Source: Escherichia coli (GTDB lineage: Bacteria; Pseudomonadota; Gammaproteobacteria; Enterobacterales; Enterobacteriaceae). Taken from it: DNA of 64,000 nucleotides. Shown here in pieces: positions 1,604 to 51,165 of this stretch. The DNA is taken from the NCBI RefSeq assembly GCF_003991155.1, contig NZ_CP031293.1. The stretch is one strand, 5' to 3'. The first letter of the stretch is position 1; every line of letters begins with the position of its first letter. Under the pieces are notes generated by a model. That model saw only the letters and a list, made by a program, of their open reading frames with translations, had not been told where the DNA came from and did not search any database. The position numbers and the translations under genes are program-made.

Positions 1604-3448
1604 TTGAATAACCCCTCATTAATAGCAAGTCGATTACAACTTTATGATTATAGCCAGCAAGAAACGTTAAATTTTGATTTGTTGGATCACCTCTTGGATT
1701 CATTGACTCAACATACAACACAACTTAAGACATTTATATCTCAACTGAAAAAAGATAAAAATCTCCGATTTATTAAAGAGTACATGGACACTGAACGTAA
1801 TATTTCAAGGTTAATCCCTTTATTAAATCAGCAGTGGAGTGATTTTTTTCAATTGATGTTGAATGAAAAATTATATACACAACAACAAATAAAATCATAT
1901 TCCCTGGACAGTCTTTATTTTTCAAATCAAGACACTTTATTAAAAGTCAACCATAATGGCTGTCTATCACAGTATATATCTGAACATAAAACATATCTAA
2001 ATATAGAACAGCCTCAAATTCAAATGCTAATAGATAAGTTTAAATGTTTAGATATTTTATTTAAGAATTTATCATATAACAACTCAGAAGCATCTTTATT
2101 TTCAGCCGTATATAAAGAGTCACTTTATGAACTTAATTATCATAATTTAAAAGAGCTTATTTGCTATGAATACAAATGTGCAGACGAAGATAAAATCAAA
2201 CACCAAAACTTCACCATATTACTAAGCAATGCATCAACATATCTTTATAAAAAGATAGATAAAAATATCGAAAAATATATAGCTATAGTTCTCGAAAATT
2301 GTGAGAATAGTATAGCTGATGCTGAAAATGCAGTTGTTGTAATTATTAATAAATCAGGAATTGATGAGGAAATAAAAAAATCATACATAGCAAAACTCAA
2401 TAATAGATTGAGTGACTTAAGTAAAATAGATGAATCAAATATGTGGTCTTACTTATTAGACCAACGAAAAATAGAGTATACTGCTGAGAATATTATTTTT
2501 TATTTTTCTCAGCATAGTGAATTAGATGAAACAATAATTAAATTTATAGATAGCGAAAAATCTATTACACTAGACTATTATAGTGGGTTTACAGACGATA
2601 TCAAAGAGAGATTTTTCGACAAGGTCATCATTTGTGAACAAATTAGCGATAACAAATACTTCGAGATATTATCTTCATTAGACTATTGCTATGAATCATT
2701 TGATATATCCGGTTTGCAGGATGCGAAGATAAAAGTACTTATCGACACTAATATAATTCGAATGTCCATTCTGAATCTAGAGTTTCTAAGAACTACATAT
2801 CCTAATAACCTTATGCATTATATAAATAAAAATATAATCGACTATATTAAACTACAGACAGGTGAATCTGCTGTTAGTGACACAAATGAAATTTTGAACG
2901 TCTTAGAATTAGATATTGATGATTCACAAAAAGAAAAGCTATCAATGATAGTAGATACTCCAATCTCTATTCAAAATAATAAATACTCAACTCTCTTTAA
3001 GAAACACATCCTCACAAATAAATTAGATATAAATGACATCCCTTATCTCATAGAAAATTATGGCACATTAGTAGCACTTCAATCGACAATTCTAATCATT
3101 TTAAGTGGTCACGTCAATGAGGTAAAAGATCATGCTGATAAATTATCGATTAACTTGTTAGAGGTCTTAATAAAGGATGCTCATTTTATCCATGATGATA
3201 ATGTAGAATTATTTGTAAAGCAGATAACTAACATGAATAAAATACAAATCAAGAAGTTTCTAAAACTGATTAATTCTTCTGAGTTAACTATCTTATTAGA
3301 TAAAAAATTGGCATCGATAAAAATAAGCTCGTCTAATGAAAAAATACTTAAGAGTTTCATAACAAATGGATTAATAAAATCCTACAGCCAAAGTACTGAA
3401 GATCCTGAATCATACATAATAGATTTCCCTGAGGAGTTTCTTGATTAA
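1604..3448 (+). CDS. Hypothetical protein, very AT-rich (N/K/I/L-rich); reading frame is open upstream to 1358, so likely 5'-truncated by the IS
   Basis: 614-aa ORF starting at a TTG. The same frame stays open back through the 3' end of the ISAs1 element to a stop at 1355-1357. No recognisable motifs. Confidence 0.5.
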   Translation: MNNPSLIASRLQLYDYSQQETLNFDLLDHLLDSLTQHTTQLKTFISQLKKDKNLRFIKEYMDTERNISRLIPLLNQQWSDFFQLMLNEKLYTQQQIKSYSLDSLYFSNQDTLLKVNHNGCLSQYISEHKTYLNIEQPQIQMLIDKFKCLDILFKNLSYNNSEASLFSAVYKESLYELNYHNLKELICYEYKCADEDKIKHQNFTILLSNASTYLYKKIDKNIEKYIAIVLENCENSIADAENAVVVIINKSGIDEEIKKSYIAKLNNRLSDLSKIDESNMWSYLLDQRKIEYTAENIIFYFSQHSELDETIIKFIDSEKSITLDYYSGFTDDIKERFFDKVIICEQISDNKYFEILSSLDYCYESFDISGLQDAKIKVLIDTNIIRMSILNLEFLRTTYPNNLMHYINKNIIDYIKLQTGESAVSDTNEILNVLELDIDDSQKEKLSMIVDTPISIQNNKYSTLFKKHILTNKLDINDIPYLIENYGTLVALQSTILIILSGHVNEVKDHADKLSINLLEVLIKDAHFIHDDNVELFVKQITNMNKIQIKKFLKLINSSELTILLDKKLASIKISSSNEKILKSFITNGLIKSYSQSTEDPESYIIDFPEEFLD

Positions 3449-6008: not shown

Positions 6009-6084
6009 TCCTCTGTAGTTCAGTCGGTAGAACGGCGGACTGTTAATCCGTATGTCACTGGTTCGAGTCCAGTCAGAGGAGCCA
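6009..6084 (+). tRNA. tRNA-Asn (GTT anticodon)
   Basis: tcctctgtagttcagtcggtagaacggcggactgttaatccgtatgtcactggttcgagtccagtcagaggagcca; 76 nt, anticodon loop ctGTTaa. By recalled K-12 layout this is asnT-like by its downstream context and asnV-like by its upstream context. Confidence 0.95.
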
Positions 6085-6226: not shown

Positions 6227-7513
6227 GTGAGCAAACGGAGCCCCCACGCTATGGCATTAACAGACACCGCTATTCGCAAGACTAAACCCTCTGACAAACC
6301 CTTCAAAATGACGGACAGTTCTGGACTGTACCTGTTGATCAAACCTAACGGCTCAAAACTCTGGTATATGAAGTACCGCATCGACGGCAAAGAGAAGAAA
6401 CTGGCCTTTGGCCCCTACCCGGAGATCTCCCTGTTGCAGGCTCGCCGCCTGCGCGAAACAGCACGCAATAACATTCATGCAGGCGTCGATCCGGCTGCGG
6501 TGAAGCAAACCGAGAAACAGAAGAGGAAAAACGGGCAGACGTTCAGCCAGATCGCCATCAACTGGCATAGCGAGCATAAACGCTGGTCTGAGCATTACGC
6601 GAAAACGGTTATGCGCAGGCTGGAAATGTACGTTTTCCCGGATATCGGGGATCGCCTTATCGAGGAGATCGAAACGGAGGATTTGTTATTCACGTTGCGC
6701 AAGGTAGAGAGTAAAGGCTTTCTGGAAATCACCGCGCGGCTGAAAAACTACGTCACCGATATCATGCACTACGCGATGAAAAAGAAACTGCTCAAAGCGA
6801 ACCCGGCGCTGTATCTGGACGGTGAGTTTGCCGCGCCAGAAACCAGTCACTACCCGGCCCTGTCGCTGGACAAATTGCCTGAGCTTTTAACCCGGACGGA
6901 TAGCTACTGCGGCAGGCTGCTGACAAAATACGCGCTTAAGCTGTCGCTGATTTTTTTTGTGCGCTCCAGCGAACTACGCTTTGCGCGCTGGAGTGAGATC
7001 GACTGGCAGCAGAAGTTATGGATAATCCCGGAAGAGCGCGAACAGATCGAAAACGTGCGCTTCTCTTACCGGGGGTCGAAAATGAAAATCCAGCACATTG
7101 TGCCGCTGTCGGATCAGGCGATTGCGATACTGAAACAGATCGAGGCCCTCTCCGGGCATCTGGCCTTTATTTTTCCCGGCGAATACGACCAGGACAAGTG
7201 CATGAGCGACAACACCGTCAACAAGGCGCTGCGCGTGATGGGTTACGACACCAAAAAGGATATCTGCGGGCATGGCTTCCGGGCAATGGCCTGTAGTGCG
7301 CTGAGCGAATCGGGATTATGGAGCAAAGAAGCCATTGAAAAGCAGATGAGCCACCAGGAAAGAAACAGCGTCCGTGCTGCCTATATTCACAAGGCTGAAT
7401 ATCTGGAGGAACGGATCGAGATGATGCAGTGGTGGTCAGATTATCTTGATGCAAACAGTGACGGGTATGTCTCGGCTTACCAGTATGCCCGCCGCCTAAA
7501 ACAGGCGTCGTAA
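6227..7513 (+). CDS. P4-type tyrosine integrase, island-associated
   Basis: 428-aa ORF directly 3' of tRNA-Asn. C-terminal ...HGFRAMACSALSESGLWSKEAIEKQMSHQERNSVRAAYIHKAEYLEERI... carries the catalytic H-x-x-R ... Y region. Possible alternative start at MALTDTAIRK (6251). Confidence 0.85.
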   Translation: MSKRSPHAMALTDTAIRKTKPSDKPFKMTDSSGLYLLIKPNGSKLWYMKYRIDGKEKKLAFGPYPEISLLQARRLRETARNNIHAGVDPAAVKQTEKQKRKNGQTFSQIAINWHSEHKRWSEHYAKTVMRRLEMYVFPDIGDRLIEEIETEDLLFTLRKVESKGFLEITARLKNYVTDIMHYAMKKKLLKANPALYLDGEFAAPETSHYPALSLDKLPELLTRTDSYCGRLLTKYALKLSLIFFVRSSELRFARWSEIDWQQKLWIIPEEREQIENVRFSYRGSKMKIQHIVPLSDQAIAILKQIEALSGHLAFIFPGEYDQDKCMSDNTVNKALRVMGYDTKKDICGHGFRAMACSALSESGLWSKEAIEKQMSHQERNSVRAAYIHKAEYLEERIEMMQWWSDYLDANSDGYVSAYQYARRLKQAS

Positions 7514-7636
7514 GTTAACAAAGCATCAGAGGGGGAAAAGGTATATTCCCCCTTTGTGCGTTTCAAATGTCGATGCTGACTGTAGCTTTTAAACTAAATT
7601 ACTGGATAAAAAGTAGCTTTTAAGCTACTATCTTTT

Positions 7637-7954
7637 ATGAAAACGATAAAGACCTACATAACTGCCGACGGGCGAGATCTGTATGCAGAGTTTTTTAAAG
7701 GGTTACGCGACCCCATCGCGAAGGCAAAGATCGCTTCCCGGATCAACCGGATGGCTTCGGACAATTTTGGCGACCATAAGCCCTGCCGGGAAGGTGTCTG
7801 GGAACTCAGGATAGATCAAGGGGCTGGGTATCGGGTTTATTACAGCCTGGTGGATGGAGAAGTCGTCCTGTTGATTCTGGCTGGCGACAAGCGTACGCAG
7901 GATGCAGATATAGATGAGGCTATTCGCTGCCTCAAAGACTATTTGAAGAGGTGA
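7637..7954 (+). CDS. Type II toxin, RelE/ParE superfamily (addiction module killer protein)
   Basis: 105-aa ORF MKTIKTYITADGRDLYAEFFKGLRDPIAKAKIASRINRMASDNFGDHKPCREGVWELRIDQGAGYRVYYSLVDGEVVLLILAGDKRTQ...; upstream of and 3 nt from an HTH antitoxin gene. Confidence 0.7.
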   Translation: MKTIKTYITADGRDLYAEFFKGLRDPIAKAKIASRINRMASDNFGDHKPCREGVWELRIDQGAGYRVYYSLVDGEVVLLILAGDKRTQDADIDEAIRCLKDYLKR

Positions 7955-13992: not shown

Positions 13993-15244
<1,252 letters not shown>

Positions 15245-41763: not shown

Positions 41764-43013
<1,250 letters not shown>

Positions 43014-43016
43014 CCA

Positions 43017-43385
43017 CTACAATGAGAGCATAAGTACACCTGCCGTCATTTCTGGTACGGCAACGCCCCCCGGTGTATAAGCTGTCCCGTTAATGATGAT
43101 GTCACAGGCGGGTTTCAGGGGGGCGAGGTCGCTTTCGCGCAGTACCGGAGATGTGTTCATCTCCCCGGCATACTCATCTTCCACACACAGCGGTAGCGGC
43201 GGGTTTTCGATAAGTTGGGTTTGCCACTGACCATTTTCGTCCCGTTGCAGCCGGAAGCCCGTTTTCATGGCGATAACGCGGTGACGTTCGCTATGTTTAT
43301 CATCCATCGCATATTCTATCGCTGAAAACGGCGTCAGGTTACGAAATTCCATATTGCACCCCGATCCCGTCTGTACCTGTCGCAA
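43017..43385 (-). CDS. Hypothetical 121-aa protein (possible effector-associated adaptor); last codons now replaced by IS sequence
   Basis: MEFRNLTPFSAIEYAMDDKHSERHRVIAMKTGFRLQRDENGQWQ...; the reading frame runs 5 nt into IS copy 2. Confidence 0.5.
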   Translation of the reverse strand: MRQVQTGSGCNMEFRNLTPFSAIEYAMDDKHSERHRVIAMKTGFRLQRDENGQWQTQLIENPPLPLCVEDEYAGEMNTSPVLRESDLAPLKPACDIIINGTAYTPGGVAVPEMTAGVLMLSL

Positions 43386-43964
43386 AACATAATTCTACAG
43401 ATGGCACAGTATCCCCCTGATACAGGTAAAAACTTATTTCACGGAAACCGGCATAGCAAACTGGATGACACAATACCGGGCAAAACGATAAGTATGGTTA
43501 CTATATGAAACGGAATACTCCCGTTTCGTATTATTTTTTTTGACTGATATCAACGGGACGAATTAACTGACAGGATATTTACTGGAAAGTGTCTGCATAT
43601 TGCTCAATATATTTTTAATGGAAATGTATTCTCCATTAATATTTATGGTGTGATTGTGTTTCCCTGTGTGTCAGCTTCCGCTAAACCCCTTGCTGCAAAT
43701 TACCGATCATTGTATTGTTGCGCCGCGCCTGCAAAATCAGGCGTCGGGATTGGAACCCTGATAAGTGTTACAGGCGACATATAGCGCATTTTGCGTCTTT
43801 TTTATGTCGTGCGTCTGGCTGCATCTCAATGGTGGGCTGGACGGGGGCGTCGCAAGACGCGCCGGTTTCCTGTAACACCGGTAGTTCCAACCCCGTTCAG
43901 TTCACCACCAATGAGATTGGAACCTCTGGTGGTGGAATTACCACCCGTTACAGGAGGCTATCCT

Positions 43965-44426
43965 ATGGTTATCATCCTTTCCCCTGACTGCGACTTACTT
44001 TCCATCCCCTTCAGTGCCACCACGGATTTCACCGATCTGGCCGACTACTGCGATCGCTTCGCTGAAACCCTGATCGAATGCCACGATCCGGCGCTGAAAA
44101 TGGCGCTTTATGGCAGGATCAACGCCAGCCTTGCGCTGCTGCGTCCCTCGTTGGGCGAGCCGATCCCGCTGCACCTGATCGACCGTTTCATTGTGGACAC
44201 GCTTCCCGACGTTTCACCGCGCTTTGAACCCGGCGCAGGGCTGCTCTGTGACTACTGTCTGGCGCTGACGCAGGTATTAAGCGGGCGGTCGCTGCTGCCG
44301 GAAACCGAAACCACACTGACCGGGTTGCTGTGCGAACTGGTCTGGTATTTTGCCGCCGACCTTAAAGCGCCGCAGTGGCTGCGCACCGCTGATGGCTTAC
44401 AGGTTATTGACGGGGGGACGGTATGA
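43965..44426 (+). CDS. Hypothetical protein of the P4-like module
   Basis: ORF 43791-44426; probable start at 43965 (MVIILSPDCDLLS...) preceded by AGGAGG at 43952-43957. Confidence 0.5.
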   Translation: MVIILSPDCDLLSIPFSATTDFTDLADYCDRFAETLIECHDPALKMALYGRINASLALLRPSLGEPIPLHLIDRFIVDTLPDVSPRFEPGAGLLCDYCLALTQVLSGRSLLPETETTLTGLLCELVWYFAADLKAPQWLRTADGLQVIDGGTV

Positions 44427-44677
44427 TGCAACCGGACTGGCATCCCGCCGATATCATGGCAGCACTGCGAAAACGTGGTACGTCGCTGGCAGCGGTTTCC
44501 CGCAAAGCGGGACTGGCGTCCGCCACACTGGCAAACGCGCTGAGCCGCTCCTGGCCGCGTGGCGAAAAACTCATTGCGGATGCGCTGGAAACATCACCGG
44601 AAATTATCTGGCCGTCCAGATATTTCGATGATCAGGGCAACCGTATTGTAAGGCTCATGCGAAAGCAGTGCTCCTGA
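44423..44677 (+). CDS. Ner/Nlp-family small DNA-binding regulator
   Basis: 84 aa: ...WHPADIMAALRKRGTSLAAVSRKAGLASATLANALSRSWPRGEKLIADALETSPEIIWPSRY... Confidence 0.7.
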   Translation: MMQPDWHPADIMAALRKRGTSLAAVSRKAGLASATLANALSRSWPRGEKLIADALETSPEIIWPSRYFDDQGNRIVRLMRKQCS

Positions 44678-44826
44678 TGACAGAAGTGTCAGAAACACGA
44701 TTACAGTAAAATCAGGCTCTCCCGGCTCTCTGCCTGCTTCTGCTGGCGGAGAGCCGGGAGAAGACAAGCGAAGCGCGGCAGGATGCCATCCCGCTGTTGA
44801 TAACAGTCACAACCGGAGTCGTTTTT

Positions 44827-45099
44827 ATGCACATGTTTAATCCACCCCATCCGGGTGACGTCCTTCGCGATTATCTGGACGGCGTGAGCATCACGCAGGC
44901 CGCTTCCCGGCTTCAGGTATCGCGCTCGCGGTTATCCCGTATCCTCAATGGACATGCACCAGTGACGGCTGATATGGCGCTACGTCTGGCGGCGCTGCTG
45001 AATACCCGCGCTGAACTGTGGACGGGGATGCAGTCTGAGTATGGCCTCTGGCAGGCGTCACAAAAACCACGACCCGTTATCCGGTCATTGCGGGGTTAA
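44827..45099 (+). CDS. HigA/VapI-like HTH (XRE-family) protein
   Basis: MHMFNPPHPGDVLRDYLDGVSITQAASRLQVSRSRLSRILNGHAPVTADMALRLAALL...; no partner toxin ORF found. Confidence 0.65.
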   Translation: MHMFNPPHPGDVLRDYLDGVSITQAASRLQVSRSRLSRILNGHAPVTADMALRLAALLNTRAELWTGMQSEYGLWQASQKPRPVIRSLRG

Positions 45100-45864
45100 C
45101 TCAGCATTTTACATTCACAAATACACGATAAAATCAGGGGGAAAACCAATATCCAGAAAAATGAGTTTCCCCTTTCTGCGCCAGAAATAACGGTGTAATC
45201 TCCCTCCTGCATTGTCGCCTTCGGGCACCCTTTGGCTTCATGGTCTGCAAGAAGCCCCTGATTTATCAGGATGACCAGCCCTTACTACCGGTACGACCTC
45301 CGCAATACCGGAACGCGAAAGCGTTTGAGGCTAAGAGTACATACACCCGAACGGCTTCATCGTCATTGCTTAACGGCAACAGTCTTCACCGGCTGAACGG
45401 CTTTTCTTTGCCGGAATTTCCCGACTGCCCCATACCCAGCTGAAAACAGCGCCCTTTACATGACGGGCTGCGGCCTGCATTGCCGTCAGGCTTTGCTGCC
45501 GCGTGACCGTCATTCTGCACCAGAAACGCAACGTTTACCCCCTGCACCAGATGAGGCGTCACTTTGGTCGCGCCAGCGAAAAAGCAAAGTGACGCCGTAC
45601 AACATACCGCCGCAAGCCGCGCCAGTTCTGGCCTGCGTCCTGTTTCCGCCGTCTGACATGCCCTTTGGGGCGCTGTCAGTCCAGAGTAAAGGAGAAAAAG
45701 ATCGATACCGAGGGGGGCACGACGCCCCGGAGATACCCCTGCTTCGTCAGGCAGTCTGTACCGCGTACAGCCTGAAACTCCCTAAACCTCAACAATCAGC
45801 CACTCCGGCGTGAAGGTATCGTTCTGGCGCAGCCAAAAAGCACACGCCGGAGACTGTTTGTTTT

Positions 45865-46767
45865 TTGTTGCAGGGGGTAGTTATGAGCAAATTAAGCAGT
45901 GAAATGAAGGCGCTGGCGAAAAAAGCAGGCGGTAGTTTCAGAACGGTGGACTACCGTATCCATGCCACGAAGCGGTTCAGTCAGCATTTACGCGAACTGA
46001 ATATTCAGATCCAGCGGGTGGAGCAGATCAAAGTTCGCCATATCGAATGCTATATTCAGGAGCGGCTGGAGCAGGATATTGGCCTGCGCACGCTGCAAAA
46101 CGAAATGGCGGCGCTGCGGGCCGTGCTGAGGCTGGCGGGACGCCGGCAGGTGGTGGAGCATCCGCGCCTGACCAATAAGGCGCTGGGGCTGTCAGGTGCT
46201 TCGCGCAACGGCACGCGTCGCGCCATCACGCCGGAACATTATGAAAAAGTGATGGAGAACGCCCGCGCACAGGATGCGGGGCTGGCGGCAGCGGTGGAGA
46301 TCGCGCGACTGATGGGATTACGCTCGCAGGAGGCGGTACAGAGTTCACAGTCGCTGAAAACGTGGCTGAAAGCCATTTCCCGCGGCGAAACCCGGCTGAA
46401 AGTGGTGTTTGGCACCAAAGGCGGGCGTCCGCGTTACACGACGCTCCTGGACGCTGGCGCAGTCAGGAAGGCGGTGGAAAACGCATTACCGATCGCCAGA
46501 CAGCGCAATGGCAGGCTGATCGACAAGCCAGACCTTAAAACGGCGCTGGAGAGCTGGCACAAACAGGCCATTAAGGCGGGGCTGAAAGGGGAATTTTCCC
46601 CGCACTCGCTGCGTTATGCGTGGGCGCAGGACGCGATCCGCCATTATCTGGCGCAGGGATTCAGCGAAAAGGAATCGCTGGCGCTGACGGCGACGGATCT
46701 GGGTCATGGCGACGGTCGCGGCCGCTGGGTGAAACAGGTGTACGGCTACCGCTGGAAGGAGGAATAA
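45865..46767 (+). CDS. Integrase-like protein (putative tyrosine recombinase domain)
   Basis: 300-aa ORF; C-terminal ...FSPHSLRYAWAQDAIRHYLAQG...VYGYRW has an R/H/Y arrangement suggestive of a recombinase catalytic region. Start may be MSKLSSEM (45883). Confidence 0.45.
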   Translation: MLQGVVMSKLSSEMKALAKKAGGSFRTVDYRIHATKRFSQHLRELNIQIQRVEQIKVRHIECYIQERLEQDIGLRTLQNEMAALRAVLRLAGRRQVVEHPRLTNKALGLSGASRNGTRRAITPEHYEKVMENARAQDAGLAAAVEIARLMGLRSQEAVQSSQSLKTWLKAISRGETRLKVVFGTKGGRPRYTTLLDAGAVRKAVENALPIARQRNGRLIDKPDLKTALESWHKQAIKAGLKGEFSPHSLRYAWAQDAIRHYLAQGFSEKESLALTATDLGHGDGRGRWVKQVYGYRWKEE

Positions 46768-46841
46768 CGGCTTTCATGAATGGCGCAAAATAGTACGTTA
46801 CTGCGTAACGACAGCGATTTATCGTACCCTCTGTACCGGAT

Positions 46842-47520
46842 CTGGCGCAGGGGGCGAGCGGGTTTGTATTGTGAAAATATCGTTACAGCATGACGAATAA
46901 ATATCAATAGCTCAGATTTTCCTGCTGAACCAATGTAGCTCGCCGGAATATTATAGTGATTACCCGGTAATCACTCGAAACGATCCCGATTAATAGCTGG
47001 TGTTTCAATCGTTTTACCGATATTACAGGTACAGGGTCGGGAAATTTTAAAATGTAAACTCACCGAGGCATCACATTAATTCTGGCGCAGGATTATATCT
47101 GAATAATTCTCTCTGTGTTTTCCTGCATCCTGTGACATATATTGCATGGTCACAGAATGTCTCATGATTTTATAAAAAATGCTGCGACGGTTTTTGACAT
47201 CATAACCTGCTGCATATAGATTAATAATTTTCGGTGCTTCATGTTATTTTTTTGCGCTCTGTGATCGTTATCTGGTGGTGAAAATACAATCTGGTGCAGA
47301 CTGTCATGGTGCATTTCTGAATAAACTGGTTGCGCCAGAAAGGGAAAGGGCCATAAAGGTTAAGGGGCGATAAGGGTAACAGCGCCTGACCGGAAAGGGC
47401 CGAAAACCAAAGAGCCAGAAACTGGCGCAGTCCTGAATGTGTGAAGTGGCGAGACGCTGGCGCAGATAACCGATCTTCCGGGGCTGGTGCAGATTATTTC
47501 GTCTCTGTATATCTGGTGCA
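46842..47520. repeat. Iteron-like direct repeats CTGG(C/T)GCAG (at least 7 copies) in a 1.2-kb non-coding region
   Basis: Copies near 46842, 47082, 47291, 47422, 47455, 47483, 47512; short palindromes at 46964-46982 (gtgattacccggtaatcac) and 47129-47155. Confidence 0.6.
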
Positions 47521-47625
47521 GTTATAATATGTATCAGGGAAGGCTGTCCGGTATTTTATGACGCCTCTTTTAGAGTATATTAATTGGTATTTCCGTGAAA
47601 ATATCGCTTATTGATAGTTTTTCAT

Positions 47626-47655
47626 CTTCCGTGATTAACGCGTTAATCACGGAAG
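47626..47655. promoter_or_regulatory. Perfect 30-bp palindrome (operator-like) upstream of the integrase
   Basis: cttccgtgattaacgcgttaatcacggaag; followed by a second inverted repeat acctatcaa(N11)ttgataggt at 47662-47690. Confidence 0.55.
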
Positions 47656-47841
47656 ACTGTTACCTATCAAAAAAAGATATATTGATAGGTAACGGTCAAA
47701 TTTTATTTGGGGCCAAATAATTGTAGATACTTTCCGATTGGTAATAAAAAAGAACAACGGCAATACCTCTCAATACAAAAAAGCAGATCCCGGCCAATCA
47801 GGATCTGCTTTTCCATTTTAATGATTTCAGCTATTTATGAC

Positions 47842-49104
47842 TCAGGCTGCCTTATGCTGCCGCGCATAAATATACGGCGCGACATACCCCTCGCGGCACA
47901 CATCCAGATAATCCGACCACCACTGCATCATGGCCTTTCTGGCCTCCAGATGCTCCGCTTTATGCACATAGGCCGCCCGCACGCTGTTACGCTCCTAGTG
48001 GCTCATTTGCCGTTCCACCGTATCGCGTGACCAGAGATCCGACTCTACCAGGGCGCTACAGGCCATTGCGCGAAGTCCATGTCCGCACACATCGGTTTTC
48101 GTATCATACCCCATCAGGCGCAGCGCCCGGTTGGTTGTGTTTTCGCTCATTGGCTTGTACGGGTTATGGTCGCCGGGGAATACCAGATCCAGATGGCCGG
48201 AAAGCTCCTGTATCTGTTTCAGAATGGCAATCGCCTGGCGGGAGAGTGGCACGATATGCGGACTACGCATTTTTGCGCCACGCCCCGAAAACCGTACTTT
48301 GTCGATGGCCTCGCGGGTGGCGGGGATGGTCCAGATTTTGTGCCTGAAATCAATCTCGCTCCAGCGGGCGAAACGCAGTTCGCTGGAACGGATGAACAGG
48401 TGCAGTGTCAGCACCACCGCCAGCCGGGTTAACTCCCGGCCCTGCCGGTAATCGCCAATACGATCGAGCAATTCAGGCAACCGCTCCAGCGGTAAAGCGG
48501 GATAGTGATTCTTGACGGGAGAGGCGACTACACCATCCAGATGCTGCGCCGGGTTGCTTTCGGTCAGTCCCTGCTGAACGGCATAGCGCATGATGTTGCT
48601 GAGTTGCTGCCGGGTTCGGGACGCGACTTCCAGAAAGCCCTTATCCTCAATAACCCGCAGCAAAGCCGTGAAATCCTGCGTTTTAAGCGCAGCAACGGGC
48701 AGATGACCAATCGCCGGGAAGATATGGTTTTCCATACTGGCGAGAATACGGGCGGCATAATCAGCCGACCATTTTTTGTTGGTTTTGTGCCAGGCCAGCG
48801 CCACCGCCTTAAAGCACTTTTCAGGGGAGCAGGCGGATTTCTCTGCCATACGCTGTTGCGCCGGGTTGATATTCTGCGCCAGTAGCTTGCGGATACCGTC
48901 GCGCTGTTGCCTGGCTTCTGCCAATGAGACAAGCGGATATGCGCCAAGACTGACTCTGGATTCTTTTCCGTTGAAACGATATTTGAGATACCAGATGCGT
49001 GAACCACCCGGATTGACGAGCAGATACAGACCCTGAGAGTCGGAGAGTTTTACCGGACGGGAAGAAGACTTTAACTTGCGGATTTTAGAATCGTTTAAAG
49101 ACAT
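47842..49104 (-). pseudogene. P4-type integrase with an in-frame amber codon before the catalytic tyrosine
   Basis: ORF 47995-49206 ends ...VERQMSH at TAG (47995-47997); the same frame continues ERNSVRAAYVHKAEHLEARKAMMQWWSDYLD... to 47842. The integrase at 6227-7513 has CAG (Q) at the equivalent codon. Adjacent to tRNA-Asn. Confidence 0.8.
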
Positions 49105-49265
49105 TTGGGGGTCACTCCAGAATCGAACCAAACTGACCCCAGATCTGACCACCAAATTATCCCGATGCGGAGAGAAAATTAGATACGCACCGGGAAGGAT
49201 TTTCACGCTAACTTACTGAATCGTAAACAAATAGAGACGCATAGATAAGCATGAAAACTTGAATT

Positions 49266-49341
49266 TGGCTCCTCTGACTGGACTCGAACCAGTGACATAC
49301 GGATTAACAGTCCGCCGTTCTACCGACTGAACTACAGAGGA
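49266..49341 (-). tRNA. asnW: tRNA-Asn (GTT)
   Basis: Reverse complement is identical to the tRNA-Asn at 6009-6084; lies between the integrase and yeeO. Gene symbol from recalled K-12 synteny. Confidence 0.9.
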
Positions 49342-49354
49342 ATCGTGAGAACGA

Positions 49355-49385
49355 GGCGAATATTAGCGACGCTCATCCACAATGT
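49355..49385 (-). promoter_or_regulatory. Sigma70-like promoter for tRNA-Asn (minus strand)
   Basis: Minus-strand reading ctttgacattgtggatgagcgtcgctaatattcgcc: TTGACA, 17-bp spacer, TAATAT. Confidence 0.5.
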
Positions 49386-49441
49386 CAAAGCCTGTTTTTT
49401 AAATTTGAAATCGTTTGCTGAAATAATCTGCACTTTGTCGT

Positions 49442-51089: not shown

Positions 51090-51165
51090 TCCTCTGTAGT
51101 TCAGTCGGTAGAACGGCGGACTGTTAATCCGTATGTCACTGGTTCGAGTCCAGTCAGAGGAGCCA
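51090..51165 (+). tRNA. tRNA-Asn (GTT)
   Basis: Identical 76-nt sequence; upstream context yeeO (asnU-like), downstream context ldtA (asnV-like) by recalled K-12 order. Confidence 0.95.

Follow-up and report, generated by a model that had tools for sequence, protein, structure and literature searches.

Short direct repeats with the consensus CTGGYGCAG are scattered over a gene-free gap at the end of a genomic island of Escherichia coli. The gap covers positions 46768-47841 of the window, by which we mean the whole 64,000-nucleotide stretch of contig NZ_CP031293.1 (assembly GCF_003991155.1) that was analysed, and it is flanked by two convergent genes, a gene for a 294-residue protein on the left (+ strand) and a P4-type integrase gene, int, on the right (- strand). 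An earlier note on this DNA had taken the repeats and some neighbouring palindromes for the replication origin, or for a densely regulated switch region, of a satellite-phage-like element. In our analysis the repeats appear to form the right-hand side of a set of DNA sites that extends to both sides of a putative relaxase gene, and do not look like a phage-satellite origin. We give about half of our confidence to the reading that the gap flanks, on its 3' side, a MOB_M/MpsA-type mobilization module carried by a tRNA-Asn genomic island, in which the motif represents putative relaxase-binding repeats around a predicted transfer origin.

Pattern and repeat searches found exactly seven exact copies of CTGGYGCAG between 46842 and 47521 (at 46842, 47082, 47291, 47422, 47457, 47484 and 47513), all on the + strand, in agreement with the earlier count of at least seven between 46842 and 47520. 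For the 1,075-bp region, dinucleotide shuffles give a mean expectation of 0.008 copies, with a maximum of 1. The repeat unit is 9-11 bp long, the spacings across the gap are 240, 209, 131, 35, 27 and 29 bp, and the copies do not lie inside longer duplicated blocks, the families returned by the repeat search being only 10-17 nt long. The span considered earlier was too narrow, since the motif continues beyond it, with + strand copies at 45824, 46454 and 46648 and - strand copies at 45176, 45515 and 45542; in the whole window 16 copies were observed, against about 1 expected from whole-window shuffles.

To place these copies in a wider context, nine loci from other species were gathered via the 294-residue protein, giving with the window a set of ten loci from eight genera (Escherichia, Serratia, Klebsiella, Cedecea, Pseudocitrobacter, Salmonella, Erwinia and one further enterobacterium). 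The motif recurs at the same relative positions in each of the seven other genera, the Klebsiella being K. indica and the Salmonella S. arizonae. Counted over the whole set, the motif occurs 3.87 times per kb inside the module and 0.105 times per kb outside (37-fold), and its polarity is strict: to the left of EFASI, an Rfam element immediately upstream of the 294-residue gene, 27/27 copies are on the - strand, while from EFASI onward 59/59 are on the + strand. In the window, the left arm of this polarity consists of the three - strand copies (45176-45550), which lie in a conserved, hairpin-rich and GC-rich region upstream of EFASI, and the first + strand copy (45824-45832) abuts the 3' end of EFASI. 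Two or three copies fall within the gene itself, in different reading frames, and survive at 63-76% protein identity; changes between C and T in them swap alanine and valine while the motif stays intact. At the level of DNA, CTGGYGCAG sites thus characterise the module in its entirety, and their orientation matters; the repeats, whose absence from related elements would have counted against the earlier note, recur across genera and behave like conserved cis-acting sites. The only constant companion of the motif is the gene with the PF12835 domain; motif-bearing loci exist that have no Ner-like gene, no gene for the 153-residue protein (orf153) or no HigA gene.

Within Escherichia, individual copies stand out from their surroundings to different degrees. 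The first copy in the gap, CTGGCGCAG (46842-46850, + strand), belongs to an Escherichia-specific part and is found in related E. coli loci, sometimes shifted by ~19 nt. The second, also CTGGCGCAG (47082-47090, + strand), is part of an extended match, CATTAATTCTGGCGCAGGA, and has flanks that agree with those of the - strand copy at 45176 once the latter is reverse-complemented. Such extended flanks are common to one upstream - strand copy and one downstream + strand copy in each lineage (CATTAWTTCTGGYGCAGGA in Escherichia, GCCG..GAACTGGCGCAG in the other genera). The third copy, CTGGTGCAG (47291-47299, + strand), is 96% conserved, versus 80% for its flanks, and probably corresponds to the copy found immediately after the stop codon in the other genera. 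The last four form a direct array (47422-47521, + strand; 35, 27 and 29 bp apart), of which copies 1, 2 and 4 are kept in the Escherichia alignment and copy 3 is variable; the motif is 100% conserved versus 77% for the flanks at 47422, and 93% versus 64% at 47457. At the equivalent place the other genera have 2-4 copies, at intervals of 26-32 bp.

The 294-residue gene (45883-46767, + strand) contains the motif copies at 46454 and 46648 and encodes a protein of tyrosine-recombinase fold, a putative MOB_M/MpsA-type relaxase, which is annotated as 'integrase domain-containing protein'. The protein matches PF12835 (1e-58) and PF12834 (9e-38), and the general phage-integrase model weakly; it has a core-binding-like N-terminal domain and an intact catalytic set, and the R..K..HxxR..H..Y residues can all be read from the translation. 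PF12835 has been put forward by the Burrus lab as a signature for 'DTR-like' integrases, with the atypical relaxase MpsA of SGI1 as the case in point (PMC10484663), and with a neighbour gene of this type the likeliest function of the region is DNA transfer and no longer replication. No other class of relaxase is reported to be as common in bacterial chromosomes as MOB_M, 96% of whose members are encoded near an integrase (bioRxiv 10.64898/2026.01.13.699239). The window gene resembles SGI1 and the other MOB_M systems (MpsA, TcpM, MobK) in the PF12835 signature, in the tyrosine-recombinase catalytic set and in its location next to an island integrase, and, as in MOB_M systems, homologues of its product occur in conjugation-gene contexts. 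One distant homologue (of those at 42-48% identity) lies beside TraG_N in the order STAXI-EFASI-gene, and another is plasmid-borne, next to TraG_N and a topoisomerase gene. To our knowledge only three MOB_M relaxases have been studied, and neither a nick site nor a binding motif has been defined for any of them.

The DNA in front of the gene also invites comparison with SGI1. EFASI (Rfam RF02957; 45697-45825, + strand, 99 bits) stands immediately 5' of the gene, in unchanged orientation, in 14/14 related loci, and ~680 bp 5' of the gene are conserved across genera as GC-rich hairpins behind a promoter-like site, with a conserved promoter-like region near 45190 (TGTAAT/TATAAT). The ~500 bp before EFASI (45190-45690) hold GC-rich hairpins conserved across genera, such as GGCGTCACTTTG...CAAAGTGACGCC, whose inner stem varies between genera. 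In SGI1, a 125-bp oriT (origin of transfer), GC-rich and rich in inverted repeats, lies directly upstream of mpsA (PMC6414798), and a primary RNA of 650-700 nt spans oriT, its 3' part being the sgm small RNA (sgm-sRNA), which lies between oriT and mpsA and is essential for transfer (PMC9299015). The order there, oriT - sgm-sRNA - mpsA - mpsB, may have a parallel in the window, where a conserved GC-rich region of ~650-700 nt with inverted repeats and a structured element (EFASI) directly precede the gene; the conserved hairpin-rich stretch 45430-45690 and EFASI occupy positions that match SGI1 oriT and sgm-sRNA, an equivalence that is positional only. By analogy, EFASI, which in Rfam is a small RNA of unassigned role, may be part of a MOB_M oriT/relaxosome region. 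Unlike SGI1, the window module has no separate mpsB; its protein has PF12834 as a fused N-terminal domain. In the MobK oriT, inverted and direct repeats occur together with short repeated motifs and with a G-rich tract that is essential (PMC8152469), and the window module shares with it a G-rich tract and short repeated motifs. EFASI and STAXI are both structured Rfam elements known from the vicinity of integrase-like genes and of conjugation 'leading-region' genes.

From left to right, the module would thus comprise a promoter-like region, the ~680-bp leader, EFASI, the relaxase-like gene, a purine-rich core, the direct-repeat array and a terminator shared with int. Each 9-11-bp copy could serve as a half-site for the relaxase-like protein, and the array, with its spacing of 26-35 bp or roughly three helical turns, might load several protomers, which together with the inverted upstream copies would fold the DNA into a looped relaxosome around the transfer origin. 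The origin itself is predicted to lie within 45551-45823, that is, in the hairpin region and EFASI where the polarity of the motif switches, and the relaxase-like protein may autoregulate its own gene through the motif sites. A narrower proposal, that CTGGYGCAG is the recognition and possibly the nicking half-site of a MOB_M relaxase and that the polarity switch at 45551-45823 marks the transfer origin, is one that we put forward only tentatively. We know of no module-wide polar 9-mer described for SGI1, pCW3 or pIGRK. The conserved, strictly polar 9-mer is a testable candidate for the missing cis element of the MOB_M class, and it points to where the transfer origin should be sought. Were the narrower proposal true, the islands with type VI secretion system (T6SS)/Rhs and defence genes that are widespread in Enterobacteriaceae at tRNA-Asn and tRNA-Asp could be mobilized, and EFASI would belong to the oriT/relaxosome region, where its role would be that of a DNA element or of an RNA like sgm-sRNA. 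The question bears on whether islands with T6SS/Rhs and anti-phage (Avs2) genes at these tRNA genes can still move by conjugation, and on the role of EFASI as an orphan Rfam motif. If the repeats do not bind the relaxase-like protein, the region is just the expanded, partly decayed 3' tail of an island gene.

Several observations weigh against a mobilization function. The relaxase homology comes from the Pfam signature quoted from PMC10484663 and not from direct similarity to a proven relaxase, and the protein that binds the motif could be a host factor. The test of motif versus flank conservation was borderline (p = 0.05), and since many E. coli modules have a pseudogenised relaxase-like gene or int, part of the conservation seen within E. 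coli may be due to recent common ancestry. Motif discovery around the loci of the homologues at 42-48% identity found no CTGGYGCAG array, one of them having a related CTGGTACC doublet at about -70 upstream; the multi-copy array is therefore clade-specific and not a hallmark of the family. Finally, the known MOB_M oriTs, including those of SGI1 and pIGRK, lie upstream of the gene, whereas the window array lies downstream of it, an arrangement that has no characterised precedent. A positional precedent for a structured repeated element 3' of the gene is provided by a Pantoea-type relative, in which STAXI is found upstream and again downstream of the mob genes. All in all, the region is best filed as a clade-specific array of cis elements of a MOB_M-type module, enlarged and possibly decaying in Escherichia.

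On the related plasmids we note the following. A PF12835-type homologue with 43% identity is encoded at 6995-7888 of the 50-kb Erwinia sp. plasmid NZ_CP155072.1 (L025), near TraG_N and a topoisomerase gene; MOB-suite types this plasmid as 'non-mobilizable', as it does 37/50 plasmids with such a homologue. The typing of NZ_CP155072.1 fits the idea that standard schemes miss the PF12835 class of relaxases.

A replication origin, or cis replication region (crr), made of iterons as in P4 ori/crr would require an initiator that binds CTGGYGCAG and opens the adjacent AT-rich stretch, and we consider it very improbable. The window does resemble P4 ori/crr in having short repeats of 8-9 bp, irregularly spaced, in a non-coding, AT-rich stretch (41% GC) after the last gene of a leftward-operon-like unit; the P4 crr also lies just downstream of the last left-operon gene and has 8-bp repeats in both orientations, the island shares with P4 the integrase type and CI/C4-type RNA immunity, and an R-loop primer might, in principle, be favoured by the purine-rich core. 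However, the search for P4-type origin motifs that the earlier note had suggested gave 0 exact copies of the P4 type-I iteron TGTTCACC and 1 copy with one mismatch in 46768-47842; the same interval contains no DnaA box, RefSeq annotation of the island shows no alpha primase, Rep or initiator gene, and the module of the other genera lacks such a gene too. Iteron-plasmid origins are recognised by regular tandem iterons of 17-22 bp, an AT-rich unwinding element, DnaA boxes and an adjacent rep gene, and here one finds an irregular 9-11-bp motif and neither of the latter two. The repeat sequence differs from that of P4, whose iterons occur in both orientations within one cluster while the window motif is strictly polar, and the P4 crr adjoins attP whereas the gap lies at the 3' end of int. 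Moreover, the copies run into the coding region and the upstream leader with a strict strand switch, the ancestral form of the region is a tail of ~200 bp squeezed between convergent genes, and the gap has no match in 50,697 phage records. The P4-like character of the surroundings stands in part: it applies to the P4-like int at tRNA-Asn, to the isrK/C4 immunity (P4 CI-RNA-like) and to the Ash-like and Ner-like genes, and does not extend to DNA likeness beyond int, which is the only match of 43301-49400 to P4 by blastn. A P4 cos site near 46851 (GGGGCGAGCGGG) was considered and rejected, there being no significant alignment to the P4 ends.

The notion of a switch region found no support either, as the neighbouring element has the same orientation in 14/14 loci. 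An invertible or excisable tyrosine-recombinase switch between inverted motif copies was rejected on this ground, EFASI and the gene keeping the same orientation relative to int in all 14. Direct and inverted repeats beside a tyrosine-recombinase gene for ~260-300 residues, as in the window, are also present in the crs/rsd system of the Salmonella virulence plasmid pSDL2 and in the TnpI IRS of Tn4430. Unlike those systems, the window shows no core site of two inverted half-sites 6-8 bp apart (by repeat and pattern search) and no inversion or deletion polymorphism bounded by the motif, and its sites are spread over 2.3 kb that include the gene. Deletions between hairpin modules, and length differences, are bounded by AATAATTT and not by CTGGYGCAG.

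The anatomy of the gap is easiest to understand from the other genera, where only ~200 bp follow the gene: CTGGTGCAA comes right after the stop codon, then the purine-rich core, then one to three further motif copies 26-32 bp apart, and finally a hairpin that terminates the convergent int. Escherichia has enlarged this ancestral tail, by an insertion of ~520 bp (46768-47290) that brought two more motif copies and three operator-like palindromes, and by one to three tandem hairpin modules after the array; the additions may be partly decaying, and in the window int is a pseudogene. The gap measures 1,074 bp, less than the 1.2 kb given earlier, and it does contain, as claimed, no open reading frame (ORF) that would explain it, none being longer than 53 residues and no RefSeq gene being annotated. 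Its best-conserved stretch is the purine-rich core GGGAAAGGGCC...TAAGGGTAACAGCGCC...GGAAAGGGCC (47305-47421, + strand), with identities of 0.90-0.95 per 25-nt bin, which in the other genera stands directly 3' of the relaxase-like gene. Towards int, a terminator hairpin AAAAGCAGATCC / GGATCTGCTTTT (47779-47812), conserved in all genera, is common to both convergent transcription units and stronger for the int (-) strand.

Between array and terminator lies a module of three helices (47594-47735, + strand), ~140-230 bp long and present in one to three tandem copies in other E. coli. Its first helix is the perfect 30-bp palindrome (47626-47655), which is where and what the earlier note had said; it is 98% paired over 11 module copies, with 6/14 pairs changed on both sides. 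Helices 2 (47655-47697) and 3 (47703-47720) are looser. The further inverted repeat noted at 47662-47690 exists at roughly that position, its arms being 47655-47670 and 47682-47697 (16 nt, 94% complementary). Also real is the 9-bp-arm palindrome GTGATTACCCGGTAATCAC, although it had been placed at 46964-46982 and its true site is 8 bases further left, at 46956-46974; its arms extend to 10 nt (46955-46975) and it is conserved in the Escherichia loci. Two more repeats of this kind are the palindrome CGTTACTGCGTAACG just 3' of the stop codon (46796-46810) and the inverted repeat CATCCTGTGAC / GTCACAGAATG with a 12-nt spacer (47126-47159). In E. albertii, copies of CGTTACTGCGTAACG flank a small ORF inserted in the same gap, so that the gap accepts small insertions and acts as a small insertion hotspot. 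That ORF (locus L012, ~2960-3330) is on the - strand and regulator-like (MAMSNAERQARYRRHARKR...); the window has one CGTTACTGCGTAACG copy left, at 46796-46810. The hairpin modules matched no Rfam model, STAXI included, at a cutoff as loose as E<=10, and a STAXI-like identity was therefore rejected.

One may also consider the explanation that the region is largely non-functional debris of a decaying island, in which the repeats and perfect palindromes arose without selection, through duplication in tandem, small insertions and the 'correction' of quasi-palindromes by template switching. The Escherichia-specific parts (46768-47305 and the hairpin modules) are indeed absent from other genera, the modules vary between one and three copies, array copy 3 is not conserved, and int and often the relaxase-like gene are pseudogenes; template switching without selection could also yield the palindrome pattern of the modules. 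Such an origin leaves unexplained the conservation across genera, the strict polarity, the in-gene copies and the highly conserved purine-rich core, and as an account of the region we find it improbable.

We regard as similarly improbable the possibility that repeats and palindromes are operators for the regulators of the island (the Ner/SfsB-like and HigA-like helix-turn-helix (HTH) proteins and the orf153 product), the gap being a regulatory region. Palindromes that are perfect and have a very short centre are what one typically finds in operators of dimeric HTH proteins, and palindromes of the form GTGATT-N-AATCAC occur in the window only at 46956-46974 and 47626-47655, against 0.03 expected; the HigA-like and Ner-like genes lie 2 kb upstream, and the E. 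albertii insertion between the CGTTACTGCGTAACG palindromes is itself regulator-like. Yet the motif persists in loci without Ner, orf153 or HigA, the main promoter and immunity region of the island (43500-43830) has no copies in its vicinity, and the gap sits between two gene ends, where there is nothing obvious to regulate. In addition, two modules in one genome have different palindromes (TTAAC..GTTAA vs TTTGC..GCAAA), so that it seems to be symmetry or structure that is selected, and not the sequence preference of one protein.

The motif might also act in RNA, with the gap forming a long 3' untranslated region, or a 3'-derived small RNA, of the relaxase-like gene in which CUGGYGCAG is bound by a protein or takes part in base pairing. 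The downstream and in-gene copies, ten in number, are all on the sense strand of the gene, mobilization of SGI1 needs a small RNA encoded in the module (PMC9299015), and in the other genera CUGGCGC can pair with an upstream GCGCCAG. A promoter-like site at 47194-47222 (10/12 matches) and a TATAAT immediately after the 47513 copy could serve the right arm alone, and the G.T pairs of helix 2 favour the + strand (30 versus 9 for the other strand, in sequences that are few and related). However, the three upstream copies are antisense to the leader, and hence a single RNA reading cannot explain both arms. Predicted structure does not favour it: 47300-47535 folds no more stably than its shuffled versions do (z = -1.4; z = +1.5 for the other strand), 0/32 predicted pairs are changed on both sides in the short-tail alignment, and upstream CTGCACCAG opposite CTGGCGCAG at the EFASI end always has a mismatch at its centre (A.C), with no covariation. 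No Rfam family matches the gap, for the Rfam 15 covariance models gave no match at the gathering score in 46768-47841 and only chance-level ones at E<=10. We consider an RNA role unlikely, if somewhat less so than operators or debris, and a relaxosome-type DNA site remains the reading that we prefer. Long-range RNA pairing of upstream CUGCACCAG with CUGGCGCAG at the EFASI end was rejected because of the constant central A.C mismatch in all genera, and so was a target of the C4/CI-like antisense RNA of the island, since GATTGGAAC/GTTACAGG are what one finds in the C4 region (43825-43912) and in its a/b targets, and nothing there is complementary to the motif.

Other identities were rejected as well. 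A LexA box at 47505-47521 reads CTG-N11-CAG and is thus off by one base. As for Chi, only GCTGGTGC at 47483 reaches 7/8 matches, and the C variant does not fit. Against a CsrA sponge or a G-quadruplex in the purine-rich core speak the small number of GGA motifs and the fact that the G-run loops (>=13 nt) are not conserved across genera. A dispersed repeat of the REP/ERIC/MITE kind is incompatible with the distribution of the gap, which is present in 485/5,426 complete E. coli genomes, usually at 80-90% identity (and is 100% identical in many RefSeq genomes), always chromosomal, in only 1-2 places per genome and at equivalent island ends. Among plasmids there is one fragmentary match, in a Salmonella plasmid.

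The int pseudogene (47842-49104, - strand), annotated as such in RefSeq, has an internal stop (TAG near 47996-47998), lies 1.07 kb from the 294-residue gene and adjoins tRNA-Asn (49266-49341). Many related E. coli loci have a frameshifted or pseudogenised integrase or relaxase-like gene, and most copies of this island end are therefore probably immobile. Further left of the 294-residue gene come genes for a HigA-like HTH protein and a Ner/SfsB-like HTH protein, the 153-residue ORF, an Ash-like ORF and an isrK/C4 RNA pair of the P4/P1 immunity type. This antisense immunity unit (43725-43990) consists of the isrK and C4 RNAs flanked by repeated target boxes GATTGGAAC...GTTACAGG (43749-43775 and 43915-43957), the second of which overlaps the ribosome-binding site of the 153-residue ORF. 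Two identical Rfam matches to 'isrC' (14063-14185 and 41832-41954, 145 bits each) were also found in the window; since the second coincides with the 5' end of an annotated IS3-family transposase, both probably mark copies of an insertion sequence and not a small RNA gene.

In E. coli, where ATCC 8739 is one of the strains that have the island, its cargo consists of T6SS/Rhs genes. In other genera the same backbone (C4 - orf153 - Ner - EFASI - PF12835 gene - P4-type int - tRNA) carries Avs2 or an ORF of ~1,000 residues in place of this cargo: the anti-phage gene Avs2 was identified in the Cedecea colo locus (L016, 90-3101; 1092 bits), and the ~1,000-residue ORF of three further loci (L014, L017 and L018) is not annotated. 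The window contains three identical tRNA-Asn genes (6009-6084, 49266-49341 and 51090-51165), and the asn tRNA cluster is a multiple integration hotspot, related island ends being found at asnT, asnW and aspV in other strains.

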